DNA of 64,000 nt, taken from positions 41,289 through 105,288 of the forward strand of contig CACCCN010000001.1 of assembly GCA_902544525.1 (NCBI GenBank). Reading direction: 5' to 3'. The position numbers and the translations under genes are program-made. Under the pieces are notes generated by a model, which did not search any database, was not told the origin of the DNA, and worked only from the letters and a program-made list of their open reading frames with translations. Source of the stretch: an uncultured Pelagibacteraceae bacterium. GTDB lineage: Bacteria; Pseudomonadota; Alphaproteobacteria; Pelagibacterales; AG-422-B15. Positions 7,817-50,279 of this stretch are shown piece by piece (position 1 is the first letter of the stretch; every line of letters begins with the position of its first letter).

Positions 7817-8021
7817 TATACTGTTCCTTTAATTATGAATAGAAAGCCGTAAAGATACATGCTTTAAAGATAATTAAAAGAGTATTTTTTTGTAATAGAT
7901 TCAATTAGTTAAATATTCTCTTAAATTTAAAATTAAATTTAAATTTATTAGATATTAATCTTGACCATACATAGTCTTAATTATAGAAGGACATCACAAA
8001 CAAATAATCGGTAAGTACAAT

Positions 8022-8456
8022 ATGGTTATGTTAAAAACACAAGATGCTCCAACATGGGTTCCTGAGGGATACAAAAAACTTGGATGGCATGCTGGATTCG
8101 ATGTTTTAATTGGGCCAATGTATTATAAAAAAGACGAAAATAATAATTTCAAATTTATTTCAAAAATTTTAGATAAACACCTTAATGCTGCAGGTATTGC
8201 CCATGGTGGATTTTCCATGGCTCTTGCCGATATTTTTTTTGGATCTGTAGCTTTCTCTGCATGCGGTAAAAAATCTACAAGTACTATTTCATTAAATTCA
8301 AACTTTGTTTCACCAGGATTGCTTGATGAAATAGTCGAATGTGAAGCCAAAGTAACAAAAATGACTAGATCTCTTATATTTATAGAGGGTTCAATATCAT
8401 CAGGTGATAAAACAATTCTATCTGCTTCAGGAATTTGGAAAATACTAGGTCAGTAA
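8022..8456 (+). CDS. PaaI-family hotdog-fold thioesterase
   Basis: 144 aa with the GIAHGGFSMALAD motif typical of PaaI/4HBT class II thioesterases. Confidence 0.65.
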   Translation: MVMLKTQDAPTWVPEGYKKLGWHAGFDVLIGPMYYKKDENNNFKFISKILDKHLNAAGIAHGGFSMALADIFFGSVAFSACGKKSTSTISLNSNFVSPGLLDEIVECEAKVTKMTRSLIFIEGSISSGDKTILSASGIWKILGQ

Positions 8457-45190: not shown

Positions 45191-45733
45191 TTGTTACAAA
45201 ATAAGAAATCAACACTTAAAAGAAAGGATTTACAACCTGTGAGAAAAACCCACTATATCAATCCACGCTACTATCAAAACGAAAAAACTATTCTCCTCAA
45301 CCCCTCAAAACCATTTTCTCGAAAAAGAAAACCACCAAAAAAACCAGGGCTTTTTAAATATATATTACTCGTATTTTTATTATTTTCTGCCTTTATTGGC
45401 TACTCAGCTTATGCAGAAGACTATTATTGTAAACAAAAAGCACTTGTGGGCTTCAAAGGTATACCAGAAAATGATCTAAAAGTTGTTGAATTCAATCCCA
45501 TGGAGTTTGAAGTCGATACTACTAATCCTAAGTGGAACTGTGAATATCCAGAAGGTGAAGACTTTCTATATTGTGCAGATTATTTCAGTCAGTTCATTAT
45601 GCAAAAAGAAACTAAAGAGTTCACTCTCACATATCACAATGGCTTAATTAAAAATGCTCAAGATAATTTATATGTAGGTTATGGGCAGTGCATTCCAAGA
45701 TTTGATGTGCCTAATGATATTGTGATTGGTTAA
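45191..45733 (+). CDS. Hypothetical single-pass membrane/secreted protein with a Cys-containing C-terminal domain
   Basis: The frame is open for 180 codons but has no ATG before the hydrophobic segment LFKYILLVFLLFSAFIGYSAYA; candidate starts are TTG 45191 or GTG 45239. The ectodomain is about 105 aa with 4 Cys. Confidence 0.35.
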   Translation: MLQNKKSTLKRKDLQPVRKTHYINPRYYQNEKTILLNPSKPFSRKRKPPKKPGLFKYILLVFLLFSAFIGYSAYAEDYYCKQKALVGFKGIPENDLKVVEFNPMEFEVDTTNPKWNCEYPEGEDFLYCADYFSQFIMQKETKEFTLTYHNGLIKNAQDNLYVGYGQCIPRFDVPNDIVIG

Positions 45734-45963
45734 CTTATATTTTTATCAATCATAGTTTTTAAAATTAGATCAGATATTTCTTTATCCATTGAAGGAGATT
45801 TAAGGGTTACACCAGCCATATCAGCAGCCACTACCCAACTTGATGTTTTATTATTCCAGAAGACAGCAACTTCACCACCATATTTAGTAGCAGCAAATGC
45901 AACAGGTAGATCATTCCAATCTCTAATCGAAGATAATAACTGTATTGGATGCTTTAGTTCCAT
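45730..45963 (-). CDS. Hypothetical small protein (paralog of the upstream 109-aa ORF)
   Basis: 77 aa. Its start forms a TAATG overlap with the upstream stop. It shares an ...AVF.N....W V..DM.G core with the 109-aa ORF. Confidence 0.4.
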   Translation of the reverse strand: MELKHPIQLLSSIRDWNDLPVAFAATKYGGEVAVFWNNKTSSWVVAADMAGVTLKSPSMDKEISDLILKTMIDKNIS

Positions 45964-46292
45964 TAACTCGCAAAGTACTTATCATAAATTTCGTTATGAA
46001 CAATTTCCTGGGTCATCTTTTCCTTTATTGCACCTATAGCATCATTATCATAACTAGATAATCCATTTTGAGGATGTACAAATTGTCCAATATTCATATC
46101 TATTTTTACCCATTTTTGTTGTTCTAAATTGAAAACAGCCAATCCATAATTTCCAGATTTCAATTTAACCATAGCAATAATTAATCCATCTCTAGATCTT
46201 AAGTCTGTAATTTCTATTGGTATTGCTATTTCGTTATCGTTTTTATAGTCATCTAGACTTATTATTTTTACTTTCAAAAGCCTTCCTTTCAC
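45963..46292 (-). CDS. Hypothetical small protein
   Basis: 109 aa. GTG start with no visible SD. It overlaps the upstream 49-aa ORF by 44 nt in the +1 frame. Confidence 0.4.
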   Translation of the reverse strand: MKGRLLKVKIISLDDYKNDNEIAIPIEITDLRSRDGLIIAMVKLKSGNYGLAVFNLEQQKWVKIDMNIGQFVHPQNGLSSYDNDAIGAIKEKMTQEIVHNEIYDKYFAS

Positions 46293-46398
46293 ATAGTTTT
46301 GTATTTATTTTTCTATTTTTTGAGATTGAGAAGGTTGACCAACCATCTTTAAAGATTGGGTCATCTTGTTTTTTAAATGACCTGCTTATTATTTTCAT
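46249..46398 (-). CDS. Hypothetical small basic protein (49 aa)
   Basis: ATG preceded by a strong SD (GGAGGTaaaaATG). Translates to MKIISRSFKKQDDPIFKDGWSTFSISKNRKINTKLCERKAFESKNNKSR. Below the ORF-track length cutoff. Confidence 0.3.
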   Translation of the reverse strand: MKIISRSFKKQDDPIFKDGWSTFSISKNRKINTKLCERKAFESKNNKSR

Positions 46399-46490
46399 TT
46401 TTACCTCCGTTTTAGCGTTTTAAAATTAGCACTCGCAATAGGAACAAATTAGTGCATAATTAGTCTACATTATCTTTTTTTAATTTTAAA

Positions 46491-47381
46491 GTGTTAAAAA
46501 ATATAGAAATGCAAATCAATAAAGAGTTACAGGAAATAATTGACGATAATATTCAGAATATCAATAATGGTATTAAAAAAGCATGCAAAGAAATCACTTC
46601 GTTTTCTCAGCCTCAAATAAGAAATTATTTACATGAGTCTGCTTCAATAAAACTTAGAGATGATCGCATTTCTAACGAAATATTAAGCCTTTTCAAAAAA
46701 GAAAATTATCAGAAAAGTAAAATTAAGGATATTTCCAATAAGTTTAGTTTATATCATGATGATGTAGAAAAATTCTTGATAAGAAAAACACATCATGATC
46801 TTGAAAAAAAGATTAACAAAAATAGTTTAGCCGATAAGTTATTAGAAATAATTTTTGAAGATTCAGGTTTTGATAAAAAAAGATTTAATTTTATTAGAAC
46901 AAATTTAGCCAACTTATTTCCATATAGTTTTTATCATTTTATATTAAACGGTTATAACAAAAATACCGTAGGTATAGATAGCGGTATTATGTCAGCAAAT
47001 GCGGGAGATAGTAGTGAACATTTTTTTGTTGCCAGAGCAATCCTTGCTGGCTTTAATGCGTCAGTTGTAGATGTTAGATCTTCAGCTTATGATGTCGTAA
47101 TTGATATAAATAATAGATTATTAAAGGTTCAAGTTAAAAGTTCAGATAATGATGTATTTAGTAGAAAGGGAAGAGATAGAGGTGGCCAGGGCATAGACCC
47201 AACTGATCCAACTAATAGAGGTAAAATAGTTTCATCTAAAGATACTGACTTACTTGTGTTTGTTATGAAAAAAACTGGTACTATTTTTATTTTTCCAAAA
47301 AATGAAATTGATAAACTACCAACTACACTAAAAGGTAGAGATTATATTAAAAATATGGAGAACTGGGATCTAATATCATAG
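46491..47381 (+). CDS. Putative Type II restriction endonuclease: C-terminal PD-(D/E)xK nuclease domain with an N-terminal helical (possible HTH) region
   Basis: The core SSEHFFVARAILAGFNASVVDVRSSAYDVVIDINNRLLKVQVKSS fits an E...D-x13-QVK PD-(D/E)xK motif (Hjc/PDDEXK_5-like). Its 3' end overlaps the convergent C5-methyltransferase gene by 6 nt. Confidence 0.55.
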   Translation: MLKNIEMQINKELQEIIDDNIQNINNGIKKACKEITSFSQPQIRNYLHESASIKLRDDRISNEILSLFKKENYQKSKIKDISNKFSLYHDDVEKFLIRKTHHDLEKKINKNSLADKLLEIIFEDSGFDKKRFNFIRTNLANLFPYSFYHFILNGYNKNTVGIDSGIMSANAGDSSEHFFVARAILAGFNASVVDVRSSAYDVVIDINNRLLKVQVKSSDNDVFSRKGRDRGGQGIDPTDPTNRGKIVSSKDTDLLVFVMKKTGTIFIFPKNEIDKLPTTLKGRDYIKNMENWDLIS

Positions 47382-48389
47382 GTTTATCGAAAGTTTTATC
47401 TTCCTAGCAATTTTCTCGATTAAATCAACTGTTACAGAATTCCCAGCTTGTTTGTATAGTTGGGACCTCGCAACATCTTTTGGAAATTTAATATTCTTAA
47501 AACCTTGTAATCGGAAACACTCTTTTGGTGTTAGCTTTCTGATGCCAAAATCATCCAGAATTAATGGTACATTATGCCCACCAGTACCCATATTAGCAGT
47601 TAATGTAGGGCACTCGTTGCTCTGATTTTCTCGAACATAGACCCTACGCCACTGATAAACTGTATCTTTGCGCTTAATAGTTTTCCTTAATTCTTTATAT
47701 GCATAAAAATCCTGGCGATAATAGAATTTTTCATCAACTTCTTTCTTCTCAAGGATTTGTTGAATATTTTTTTTACGCTTAGAGGGTTGAATATGATTTT
47801 TATCAAATAAATAACTGCTATATTTTTTTTGATTTTTTAAATCAAATTCCCAGTCTTTCTCATCTCTAAAACAAACAATAATGGTTCTTTCACGATTCTG
47901 GGGAATGTCTGTATAAACAGAAGTATTATAAACTTCCCAAAAAACTGAATAACCAAGTTCATGAAGTGTTTCAATAATAATATCTTTAGTTCTCCCTCCG
48001 TCATGTCCACTTAAATTCTTTACATTTTCAAGCATTAAAGCTTTAGGTTTTTCTTCTTTCTCCTCTAATTTTTTAATTAAATTCATTATTGAGTAAAATA
48101 AATTCCCGCGGGGATCCTTAAACCCTTTTTGATAACCTGCAACCGAGAATGCTTGACATGGGAACCCTCCAACTAATACGTCAACTGGGGTTAACTCATC
48201 AATAGTAAGATCATTAATATCTTTTTCTATGAGTTTATGTTCAGGATGATTTAATCTATACGTTTTACAGGCATTCTTATCAATTTCATTTGACCAATTA
48301 ATTTCAAAGCCAGCCCGTTCAAACGCAAGTTCAATTCCACCTACTCCTGAAAATAAACCTCCTACTGTAAGTTTTTTATTTACCATCAA
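47376..48389 (-). CDS. dcm: DNA (cytosine-5)-methyltransferase
   Basis: All hallmark motifs are present: I LFSGVGG, IV GGFPCQAFS, VI LMLENVKNL, VIII PQNRERTIIV, X AGNSVTV. Confidence 0.9.
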   Translation of the reverse strand: MMVNKKLTVGGLFSGVGGIELAFERAGFEINWSNEIDKNACKTYRLNHPEHKLIEKDINDLTIDELTPVDVLVGGFPCQAFSVAGYQKGFKDPRGNLFYSIMNLIKKLEEKEEKPKALMLENVKNLSGHDGGRTKDIIIETLHELGYSVFWEVYNTSVYTDIPQNRERTIIVCFRDEKDWEFDLKNQKKYSSYLFDKNHIQPSKRKKNIQQILEKKEVDEKFYYRQDFYAYKELRKTIKRKDTVYQWRRVYVRENQSNECPTLTANMGTGGHNVPLILDDFGIRKLTPKECFRLQGFKNIKFPKDVARSQLYKQAGNSVTVDLIEKIARKIKLSINL

Positions 48390-48837
48390 TTTTTTTAAAC
48401 TCTTGTTCAGTTATTGATTTTAAGCCCCCTTGAAAATATAGACCGTACTTATCTTTATTTTTTATAAAATCCAGTTCATTTATTTTAGATTTAACAGAAA
48501 AAGGTTGTTCAAAAATTTTAATCTCTTTGATTTTAATATATTTTTTAATAACAGACTTTTGATATGATTGATTAAAATTGTCGTAATGCATATCAAAGTC
48601 TTCTATGATCTTATCAGTAGTAAATGATGCAACAAAATGTTGGGAGTATTTATTTGTTCCAGCAAGATAAATTAAAAAATGACTTTCATTTTTAATTTTT
48701 TGAATGCCTGGGGTATTTCTGTATAAAGGCCATTTTTTTTCTTCAAGTCTTTTCATACTTATATCAAAAGCTGATACAAGCTGATCACTGTTATCGACAT
48801 CATATCCATCATTACAAATTAAATAAAAGTAGTTCAT
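48376..48837 (-). CDS. Hypothetical protein, PUA-like (EVE/ASCH-type) fold suspected
   Basis: 153 aa. The pattern MNYFYLICN...KKWPLYRNTPGIQKIKNESHFLIYLAG...LKSITEQEFKKI resembles stand-alone EVE/ASCH domains. This is by-eye pattern similarity only. Its stop overlaps the dcm start by 14 nt. Confidence 0.35.
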   Translation of the reverse strand: MNYFYLICNDGYDVDNSDQLVSAFDISMKRLEEKKWPLYRNTPGIQKIKNESHFLIYLAGTNKYSQHFVASFTTDKIIEDFDMHYDNFNQSYQKSVIKKYIKIKEIKIFEQPFSVKSKINELDFIKNKDKYGLYFQGGLKSITEQEFKKIDGK

Positions 48838-48863
48838 GCGTTTTATAATCCTAACTATAAAGC

Positions 48864-50198
48864 TTATTTACACCAATTTGTTTTATTATCCCGATCATAA
48901 ACAACTCCCAAGTTTTTACTTACAATATTAGTGGATACATCTTCGCCATCAACTATTAGATGAGCAAGAATTCTACCAAAATAATCTTCCTTATAATCTG
49001 TTTTAAACTTAATAGTTGCAGCATTAGCAATTAGGTTATTGAGATAATCTCTAGCTTTTAAGCCTAGTTCAAGCTCAGCCTCACATTTGGGTTTGGATAT
49101 TTCTGGGGTGTCTAATTCTAATAATCTGATTTTAGTATCAATTCCATTCAACGTTACGTAGCAGGTATCCCCATCATAGCAGTATTGATCTTTGTATTTA
49201 CGTAAAACAATTTTTTCCTCTACTAATTGTGAGTAAGCTATATAAATTTCTTCAGCGCTATTGATAGCTTTGACACCTGCTCCTGAAAACCGAGGTGGTA
49301 TAACATTAGGTGACGCATAAATATGACCTCCATTTAATAATGTATATAATCCAACAATTTTACTGCCATTGCTCTCTTTTTTAATAACAGAAGTTTCACC
49401 ATCTAAATTTTTAAATGCGATAATCTTCTCTGTGTACATAGATGTTAAATCTCTCCAATAATTGTAGGTTGCATCTGAAGATATAACAAATCCTCTGCTG
49501 TCATTTCCAAGAATTGAGACTAAACCACCTTGATGCGGATTGATTGTGTCAACCGCACCATTAAAAATCAGCATGTTGACTTCACGATTTGATCTAGAAC
49601 AATCGTTATTTTCCTCAATCGGAAGATTTGCAGCAAAGGCGGCGTATAATAAAATATCTTCTGGAATTTCATAAGCAAGTTTAAAAACCATATGACCACC
49701 ATTTGACATACCACTCACTACAATTCTGTTGGTGTCGATTCTAAAGTCAGTTTTTAGAAATTTTACTACTTGCTTAAAATAGCCTACGTCATCAATGTCT
49801 AATTCATTGGCGTCATAATCTGCTGTGCCCCTACAATCGTTCCAATGATTTTTATAGCCTTGCGGGTAAACAACTAAGAAACCTTTTTCCTCGGCTAGAT
49901 ATTCAAAGTCATATCCCGTAAAAACTCTCATTCCTTCTGCACTCTCTCTAGAGCCATGCAAAGCAAAAAAAACAGGGGCATCATTTTTTAGTGAACTTGG
50001 AATATATACACCATAAGTCCTGGTTAAATCATCATGCGTAAAAGAATAAGTTTTATATGTTCCTTGTGAAGGTGGATCTCTTAAGACTTCAGCCGTTGTA
50101 TAGTAGCTTAAAACTGCTAAGGCAAGATAAATACCAAAGACTATACCAATAAAAAATAAAAAATAATTTGAGGCAATAATTTTTTTTAATGGAATCAT
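48864..50198 (-). CDS. Membrane-anchored fusion: alpha/beta-hydrolase (PHB-depolymerase/LpqC-type esterase) plus C-terminal staphylococcal-nuclease (SNase) domain
   Basis: N-terminal TM helix. The esterase part has ALHGS and the nucleophile elbow GMSNGGHM. The C-terminal DGDTCYV...IRLLELDTPE...YFGRILAHLIVDGEDV matches SNase Ca/catalytic motifs (compare RLLLVDTPE in S. aureus nuclease). ATG at 50198; the ORF track uses TTG 50219. Confidence 0.7.
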   Translation of the reverse strand: MIPLKKIIASNYFLFFIGIVFGIYLALAVLSYYTTAEVLRDPPSQGTYKTYSFTHDDLTRTYGVYIPSSLKNDAPVFFALHGSRESAEGMRVFTGYDFEYLAEEKGFLVVYPQGYKNHWNDCRGTADYDANELDIDDVGYFKQVVKFLKTDFRIDTNRIVVSGMSNGGHMVFKLAYEIPEDILLYAAFAANLPIEENNDCSRSNREVNMLIFNGAVDTINPHQGGLVSILGNDSRGFVISSDATYNYWRDLTSMYTEKIIAFKNLDGETSVIKKESNGSKIVGLYTLLNGGHIYASPNVIPPRFSGAGVKAINSAEEIYIAYSQLVEEKIVLRKYKDQYCYDGDTCYVTLNGIDTKIRLLELDTPEISKPKCEAELELGLKARDYLNNLIANAATIKFKTDYKEDYFGRILAHLIVDGEDVSTNIVSKNLGVVYDRDNKTNWCK

Positions 50199-50279
50199 AC
50201 TAAATAAATTAAGTAACAAATCATTCCTAAAAATCCTAGTAGTGTACCTAAAGTTAAAATTAAAATTTTATACTTCATA

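Follow-up and report, generated by a model that had tools for sequence, protein, structure and literature searches.

A stretch of 64,000 nucleotides (the window) from contig CACCCN010000001.1 of an uncultured Pelagibacteraceae bacterium encodes, next to a Dcm-type C5-cytosine DNA methyltransferase (C5-MTase), a stand-alone protein of 153 amino acids (aa) with the predicted fold of an EVE domain, and its homologs adjoin C5-MTases in most of the related marine loci. The EVE identity of the protein and its partnership with the methyltransferase are well supported and very probably correct. The best explanation overall, which we hold tentatively, is that the protein is a non-catalytic stand-alone EVE reader and a fixed partner of the C5-MTase in mobile type II restriction-modification (R-M) cassettes of the SAR11 type. 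Stand-alone EVE proteins at R-M loci were already known; what is new is the type II C5-MTase partner, the near-obligate pairing with a writer of 5-methylcytosine (5mC) and not with a nuclease, and the alternation with Vsr. The features of the window on which the argument depends are:

48376..48837, minus strand: stand-alone EVE-fold (UPF0310-like) gene, 153 aa, recognized by its open reading frame (ORF), selection, family matches and predicted AlphaFold 2 fold.
48376..48386, minus strand: overlap ATGGTAAATAA of 11 nucleotides (nt), with the dcm start inside the final EVE codons, recognized by sequence and by conservation in relatives.
47376..48386 (48389 if the start is TTG), minus strand: gene of a C5-cytosine DNA methyltransferase, Dcm-type, 336 aa from the ATG, recognized by profile matches.
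46491..47381, plus strand: candidate restriction endonuclease (REase) gene, 296 aa, PD-(D/E)XK-like, convergent with dcm, recognized by a borderline match to PF11645.

On sequence profiles and a structural model, the protein is a divergent EVE family member, a predicted EVE/PUA-like barrel of the UPF0310/MJECL36 type. It matched NCBIfam PRK00809 (UPF0310) with an E-value of 3e-11 and 43.1 bits against a cutoff of 139, which makes it a homolog of UPF0310/PRK00809 but, being below the curated cutoff, not a member at that level; there was no Pfam match at E<=1 and no PADLOC match, so that among these collections only NCBIfam matched. Pfam EVE (PF01878) was matched by 53 of the 70 aligned family members, at best with an E-value of 6.5e-10, and the homolog P0005 and several other family members are named 'EVE domain-containing protein' by NCBI; the putative EVE family membership of the window protein is transitive. 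In a sequence search of the PDB, the window protein found MJECL36 (E-value 3e-5) and PH1033 (4e-4), which the 70-member family profile matched at 1.4e-19 and 1.5e-11, respectively. An exhaustive HMMER search gathered 1093 cluster representatives, nearly all of them stand-alone proteins of about 150 aa. The AlphaFold model from the 70-sequence alignment has a mean predicted local distance difference test score (pLDDT) of 94 and a predicted template modeling (TM) score (pTM) of 0.89. Its top Foldseek match in the PDB is MJECL36 (TM 0.74/0.78, root mean square deviation 3.1 A), followed by PH1033, and further matches are the EVE domain of VcaM4I (PDB 6yex, Foldseek E-value 1.5e-4), the alphaproteobacterial EVE proteins Rpa0253 and Atu2648, YTH domains, the N-terminal domain of McrB, THYN1 and PSPTO5229; an earlier model from a shallower alignment gave the identical list. 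A preliminary description of this DNA, made by eye from the letters, had assigned the ORF to the EVE/PUA superfamily by an N-terminal strand, a W-x-L-Y-R-N region, a strand LIYLAG and the C-terminus, and had proposed structure prediction and profile searches as checks for a PUA-like barrel; with these checks run, the barrel was found, the assignment gained the support of the UPF0310 and PDB sequence matches, of PF01878 and of AlphaFold and Foldseek, and the features seen by eye were matched by strands 3-8 (YFYLIC), 35-39 (KWPLY) and 53-58 (FLIYLA) and by a C-terminal helix 144-151 (EQEFKKID) of the model. W36 and Y57, which sit in W-x-x-x-R-N and h-Y-h-x-G motifs resembling canonical EVE motifs, are invariant across the 70 family sequences. 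An EVE-HNH family member used as a bridge to the VcaM4I pocket gave a sequence match to MJECL36 only. Over the 70-sequence alignment, the EVE protein showed neither a nuclease nor a glycosylase motif, nor any conserved set of residues that look catalytic. Identity with Vsr (PF03852) was rejected, there being no Pfam Vsr match, no phmmer match to marine Vsr and an EVE fold instead; so was identity with an R-M controller (C) protein, there being no helix-turn-helix (HTH) match and the gene flanking the methyltransferase (M) gene, not the restriction (R) gene; and so was a modification-dependent enzyme of the PUA-nuclease type (type IV/IIM), there being no nuclease domain in the 153 aa and a C5-MTase alongside.

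The EVE ORF occupies 153 codons of the minus strand, from an ATG at 48837 to 48376, and its TAA (48378-48376) lies within the dcm frame. Its guanine plus cytosine (G+C) content is 25%, compared to 33% for the window, and stop codons are frequent in DNA of 25% G+C. Homologs of the gene exist at 97, 84-88, 41 and 33-44% identity, and the ratio of nonsynonymous to synonymous substitution rates (dN/dS) is 0.13 against a relative of 84% identity and 0.11 against one of 88%, at a dS of about 0.5. Because of the frequency of stops at this G+C content, the persistence of homologs to about 33% identity and the low dN/dS, the ORF is no chance ORF but a real gene under purifying selection, and the 153-aa ORF that the preliminary description had placed across the dcm start is confirmed as a gene. 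The overlap itself also stands, but not the length of 14 nt given for it, which needs dcm to start with the TTG at 48389. In relatives of 84-88% identity this TTG is replaced by TTA or TTC, but the ATG at 48386 is retained, as is the string ATGnnnAAATAA, which unlike the upstream TTG is kept in loci L004, L005, L006 and L024; since the ATG and the string are conserved and the TTG is not, the real overlap of EVE and dcm is most likely 11 nt. We infer that translation of EVE and of dcm is coupled in window-type loci. Two EVE copies show signs of decay: one at L008 2533-2960 has a frameshift in a poly-A run, and that of L023, which is 98% identical to the EVE of the window, has codon 146 changed from CAA to TAA at about 1006.

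The linkage of EVE to C5-MTases was surveyed in 9 reference-genome loci (nearly all from Pelagibacteraceae single-cell genomes), 64 marine-metagenome loci and 7 contigs obtained through exact-protein look-ups. The search for related loci used a 5-sequence EVE alignment that reaches the marine clade only; all ORFs of the fetched loci were then searched with EVE-family and C5-MTase profiles, and 79 loci had an EVE match. In 65 of the 79 a C5-MTase lies within 105 nt of EVE or overlaps it: 58 of these are divergent, with Dcm on the opposite strand across a gap of 19-105 nt, and 7 are co-directional with EVE upstream, like the window. Three loci of the 79 have the order EVE, a gene for 260-266 aa of unknown function, and Dcm. 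No C5-MTase was found in 11, but 9 of these have 158 nt of sequence or less on the Dcm side; among the 11 are L086, a distant member with only 55 nt downstream, and L016, from a Pelagibacteraceae single-cell genome, which is a deletion remnant that has lost R and M together with the N-terminal two thirds of EVE. The deletion in L016 has its endpoint inside EVE, and the last 47 or so EVE codons (7965-8174) are left beside hisG. Overall, EVE is linked to C5-MTases in 68 of the 79 marine loci, with no informative counter-example that has an intact gene, so that the gene-neighborhood survey proposed in the preliminary description did find the homologs linked to methyltransferases. Clustering of the EVE proteins at 70% identity gives 11 clusters, of which 10 have a linked C5-MTase. 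In a control set of 80 C5-MTase loci from viral contigs, which span 646 kb and have Dcm proteins with 34-59% identity to that of the window, no EVE-family ORF was found within 4 kb of the methyltransferase, and three Vsr genes are present. Viral contigs, phage records and plasmid records yielded no relative of the EVE protein, and there is no evident sign that phages or plasmids carry the gene. In its cassettes EVE is either the first gene of an operon or monocistronic, and it shares the promoter region of dcm (gaps of 19-105 nt).

The other parts of the cassettes are exchanged around this pair. The partner Dcm proteins are of at least three types (327 aa; 413-427 aa; a tandem of 308 and 323 aa) that are 24-38% identical between types, and the EVE proteins of the divergent arrangement are 50-70% identical to one another beside Dcm proteins that are 24-97% identical. 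The gene convergent with dcm belongs to at least nine unrelated families, including the Bsp6I REase family PF09504 (9 loci), and most of these genes have no Pfam match; type II enzymes usually lack one. The 296-aa candidate REase of the window has no homolog in any fetched locus, which is in line with swapping of R genes. At L024 and L074, EVE and Dcm are 88% and 87% identical to those of the window and lie at the same chromosomal site, the flanking gene being a homolog of the window gene at 45191-45733, and the convergent gene of L024 and L074 encodes an unrelated protein of 279 aa at a site matching that of the window; the R gene was thus swapped at one chromosomal site between the window and L024/L074. 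The genes downstream of EVE vary among loci (hisG, a PIF1 helicase gene, an HTH gene and others), and an integrase gene flanks L001 and L003. In the marine loci EVE is always on the methyltransferase side and never adjoins the R gene. Because R genes, Dcm types and neighbors change while the adjacency of EVE and Dcm persists, EVE is part of a mobile unit in which it is tied to the M gene, whichever nuclease and chromosomal site go with them. A 112-aa ORF upstream of the R gene, found at L009 5688-6026 and in 18 other loci, has no family match. With about 90% conservation between cassettes of different types and no copy in the window, it is probably a flanking gene and not a cassette member.

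The Dcm of the window matches PF00145 (E-value 7e-87), TIGR00675 (9e-89) and PADLOC MTase_II (4e-107). The stop codons of dcm and of the candidate REase gene, which has a G+C content of 28%, abut. The candidate REase matches PF11645 (PDDEXK_5) with an E-value of 1e-5 and 26.0 bits against a cutoff of 26.1, and its matches to PADLOC HEase and REase_II are weak; the assignment of the cassette to type II R-M systems would combine a methyltransferase identified by profiles with a borderline PD-(D/E)XK candidate. A search with the window Dcm found more than 100 homologs at 59% identity or more. Two of these, P0236 (64% identical, 18 contigs) and P0301 (59%, 24 contigs), have in unchanged form the motif DTVYQWRR.YVREN.S..CPTLTANMGTGGHNVPLI, which also occurs in Dcm proteins that adjoin Bsp6I-family REases and which we take to be the target-recognition region. 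The P0236 and P0301 contigs have genes for an HhH-GPD glycosylase, Vsr (PF03852) and Dcm in that order, with gaps of 1-16 nt, and no EVE gene was found in these Vsr-type cassettes. Likewise, the EVE loci and the 64-kb window yielded no relative of the marine Vsr or of the HhH-GPD glycosylase. EVE and Vsr therefore occur in the same position, directly upstream of homologous dcm genes and tightly coupled to them, and never together in the sample. The operon that converges on the Vsr-type dcm encodes an HTH protein, a 348-aa protein, a Bsp6I-like REase, a 183-aa protein with HNH-like CxxC motifs and a 254-aa protein, and includes homologs of R candidates from EVE-type cassettes. In the Vsr-type loci L088-L093 (for example, L088 2680-8166) and the P0236 contigs, two T:G-repair genes accompany a single Dcm, and L088 has an extra Vsr-like fragment at 2421-2561. 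The proposal that Vsr-type cassettes share a chromosomal hot spot with EVE cassettes was rejected, as the two 389-aa neighbors are unrelated.

The target site of Dcm bears on some of the explanations weighed below. The only basis for a GCNGC specificity is that related cassettes contain Bsp6I-family REases and have the motif in common. Palindrome avoidance did not disclose the site within the 64-kb window, where GCNGC occurs 131 times against 129 expected and so shows no depletion; the segment from 45890 to 49018 has none. Among the 4-mer palindromes of the window, GGCC is the most under-represented (44 observed, 80 expected, ratio 0.55); it has no link to the EVE cassette and hints at pressure from a GGCC-specific R-M system elsewhere in the genome.

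The wider EVE family and the systems already known supply a context for the protein. The archaeal MJECL36 (PDB 2p5d) and PH1033 (1wmm/2hd9) are also stand-alone proteins of the same size with the same barrel and share the block L-x-F-I-x-N-K-x-x-W/Y-G, but they are only 19-23% identical to the window protein. Close family members include fusions of EVE to HNH (McrA-like) and PD-(D/E)XK nucleases, such as the reader-plus-nuclease proteins P0126 and P0073, and these nuclease-fused relatives suggest that the ligand is DNA and not RNA. Another fusion, P0067 (547 aa), joins an EVE domain to a DUF900 alpha/beta hydrolase, with no partner of nuclease type. Wider stand-alone members, 26-30% identical, are found after the brxL gene of a bacteriophage exclusion (BREX) system (L017 5001-5447), after an MmeI-like type IIG/L pair (L022 5001-5459), and beside a UvrD-PD-(D/E)XK helicase-nuclease and an N6_N4 methyltransferase (L021 5001-5462). 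In the EVE domains studied so far, those of VcaM4I and THYN1, an aromatic pocket receives the flipped-out modified cytosine; VcaM4I, an EVE-HNH protein (PDB 6yex, PMC7897488), flips 5mC or 5-hydroxymethylcytosine (5hmC) into a hydrophobic aromatic pocket formed by P24, W82 and Y130. The window protein resembles VcaM4I in its EVE fold but differs in that it has no nuclease domain and adjoins a 5mC writer. Fusions of PUA domains and nucleases are rarely accompanied by methyltransferases (Lutz 2019), and the EVE-Dcm pairing is the opposite pattern. Stand-alone EVE proteins have been described beside type I R-M systems and DUF499/SWI2-SNF2 (Hma-like) helicase systems (Bell, Wolf, Koonin 2020, PMC7641849), which make no mention of Pelagibacter, of BREX or of pairing with type II or C5-cytosine methyltransferases. 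In the systems of Bell et al., too, a free EVE protein is an accessory of a restriction system that contains a methyltransferase; what sets the marine pair apart is its type II C5-cytosine MTase and the near-obligate association, which involves the M gene instead of a nuclease. The preliminary description had called a free reader encoded with a 5mC writer unusual; a free EVE protein beside an R-M system does have precedents, in view of PMC7641849, but its pairing with a type II C5-MTase is new, and a full-text literature search for EVE combined with Vsr or with SAR11 R-M islands did not find the EVE-Dcm arrangement described.

Vsr, in the dcm-vsr pair of E. coli and in the marine cassettes, is like the EVE gene in being small (132-156 aa) and tightly coupled to a C5-MTase gene, upstream of it in the marine cassettes, and the marine Vsr and EVE cassettes have homologous methyltransferases and homologous R genes. 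Unlike Vsr, the EVE protein has an unrelated fold and no endonuclease motif, so it would not nick DNA by itself. In eukaryotes, MBD4 combines a methyl-CpG-binding domain with an HhH-GPD T:G glycosylase, and the SRA domain of UHRF1, which belongs to the PUA-like superfamily, works with the maintenance methyltransferase DNMT1. These proteins resemble the proposed role of EVE in tying a 5mC reader to the consequences or the maintenance of C5 methylation, but by analogy only: there is no homology of the EVE protein to the methyl-CpG-binding domain, and the coupling of reader and enzyme in MBD4 and UHRF1 serves here as an analog.

According to the explanation preferred here, the EVE protein would read a modified base flipped out of DNA, binding 5mC made by its partner Dcm, or the thymine left after deamination of that 5mC, in an aromatic pocket that may include W36 and Y57. 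That it reads 5mC or its decay product is the simplest reading because the writing of 5mC is the only feature common to its varied partners. It would act together with the methyltransferase side of the cassette and not with the restriction side. By marking methylated or deaminated sites it may hand these over to base-excision or nick repair enzymes of the host, and the handover would limit the load of C-to-T mutations from 5mC in a way that resembles MBD4 but in trans; the downstream step is assigned to another protein because EVE has no catalytic motif. The repair role, in which EVE would be an analog of Vsr by position that limits damage from 5mC deamination, is by analogy a minority bet and rather unlikely; as a Vsr substitute, which the preliminary description had mentioned, EVE has positional support only, from Vsr on the same side of dcm in related cassettes. 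The more specific idea of EVE as a 'V-type' accessory of the C5-MTase that replaces both Vsr and the T:G glycosylase, or as a bacterial guide of Dcm resembling UHRF1, is unlikely. Several points weigh against the preferred explanation or its repair form. A repair role requires a partner from the host, the EVE protein itself having no nuclease or glycosylase motif. The exclusivity of EVE and Vsr comes from only two Vsr-type Dcm lineages, of a different organism (37% G+C), and could be a lineage effect; one locus (L087) has a Dcm 75% identical to that of the window and neither EVE nor Vsr. In most marine loci EVE is divergent from dcm and uncoupled from it. In the Foldseek scores, similarity to YTH domains, which bind N6-methyladenosine (m6A), is on par with similarity to EVE domains that bind 5mC, so that the base specificity is taken from context only. 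Finally, the BREX and MmeI-like contexts, which have adenine methylases, fit a general defense sensor better than a 5mC-specific one.

A sensor of that sort, acting in trans on foreign modified cytosines (for example, 5hmC or the hypermodified bases of phages that evade the type II enzyme) and directing or triggering a nuclease as a type IV-like arm, is the role proposed by Bell et al. (2020, PMC7641849). It would suit the fusions of family members to HNH (McrA-like) and PD-(D/E)XK nucleases and the stand-alone members that end BREX and MmeI-like operons or adjoin the UvrD-PD-(D/E)XK/N6_N4-MTase locus, yet it is improbable for the marine cassettes: the gene is always on the MTase side and never beside R, the R families are mutually unrelated, the model does not account for a marine clade that pairs exclusively with C5-MTases, and a protein that provokes cleavage on recognizing modified cytosine would be at odds with the 5mC writer next to it (cf. 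Lutz 2019). Alternatively, EVE might sense the methylation state and act on the methyltransferase or on cassette expression, either as an analog of a controller protein that is titrated onto methylated genomic sites and times M relative to R, or as a cofactor that binds hemimethylated sites and stimulates Dcm in the manner of the UHRF1 SRA domain. Such a sensor would be expected, as a context-free 5mC reader, to pair with any Dcm type, as EVE does; EVE is always first in its operon or monocistronic and shares the dcm promoter region, its coupling to dcm in the window type would fit, and EVE-type cassettes have no counterpart of the controller-like HTH gene of Vsr-type cassettes. We nonetheless judge this role, too, to be improbable, for EVE has no HTH or other sequence-specific DNA-binding element and, unlike controller genes, is not upstream of R; in 55 of the 58 dcm-EVE intergenic regions there is no GCNGC within 100 nt, and if GCNGC is the Dcm site these regions have no methylatable operator. 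We know of no bacterial precedent for such a sensor.

Two further explanations were weighed. EVE might cover the 5mC sites of a newly methylated genome, so that nucleases of the McrBC, BisI or MspJI type, which depend on modification, would not attack it in a new host; this would aid invasion by the cassette and would fit its pairing with a 5mC writer whatever the specificity of the latter and the signs of mobility (low G+C, the integrase beside L001 and L003, the many chromosomal contexts). Thousands of sites, however, would need stoichiometric cover, and the proposal is pure conjecture, with no evidence of type IV systems in these hosts; we consider it very improbable. Least credible of all, in our judgment, is a housekeeping RNA-binding PUA-like protein, a resident flanking gene of an insertion hot spot that is beside dcm by accident. 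Relatives are annotated as 'predicted RNA-binding protein' by the Joint Genome Institute, many loci of the divergent type adjoin hisG, and across cassette types EVE is more conserved than the neighboring Dcm; but the adjacency holds in three gene orders and many chromosomal contexts, the window included, the 25% G+C of the gene is island-like, EVE was lost together with the R-M genes in L016, and it travels with an integrase in L001 and L003.

The remaining features of the cassette region in the window are:

48838..48863, minus strand: spacer of 26 nt between the upstream esterase/staphylococcal nuclease (SNase) gene and the EVE start, from the sequence.
45730..46292, minus strand: two small ORFs of 77 and 109 aa between the candidate REase gene and the conserved flank, with no family matches.

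No separate promoter or terminator was detected in the 26-nt spacer. The gene on its far side (48864-50219, minus strand) encodes a 451-aa esterase of polyhydroxybutyrate-depolymerase type (alpha/beta hydrolase) with a C-terminal staphylococcal-nuclease domain, and this fusion recurs as a neighbor of EVE in L004 and L023. The 77- and 109-aa ORFs are absent from L024 and L074, where the homolog of the flanking gene directly adjoins the R gene; they are possibly island cargo, of uncertain membership in the cassette.

Proteins that read DNA methylation have a central place in eukaryotic epigenetics; the bacterial readers known to date serve, to our knowledge, almost exclusively to target enzymes that degrade methylated DNA. 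In the cassettes of the SAR11 type, a free putative reader stays beside a 5mC writer through dozens of variants, in which the restriction genes are exchanged; the SAR11 lineage is the most abundant bacterial lineage of the ocean. For specialists in R-M systems, the pairing of reader and writer and the alternation with Vsr are surprising and easily testable. Should EVE deal with the mutations that 5mC brings about, or direct the methyltransferase, it would be a new class of component of type II R-M systems and would offer a simple two-gene system for a bacterial reader-writer pair; as a V-type accessory or a UHRF1-like guide, it would make up with Dcm the first dedicated 5mC reader-writer pair of bacteria. 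Even as one more defense sensor, EVE marks the commonest R-M cassette architecture in the marine genomes and metagenomes surveyed, and its pairing with Dcm gives a testable context to the UPF0310 structures that were solved about twenty years ago.

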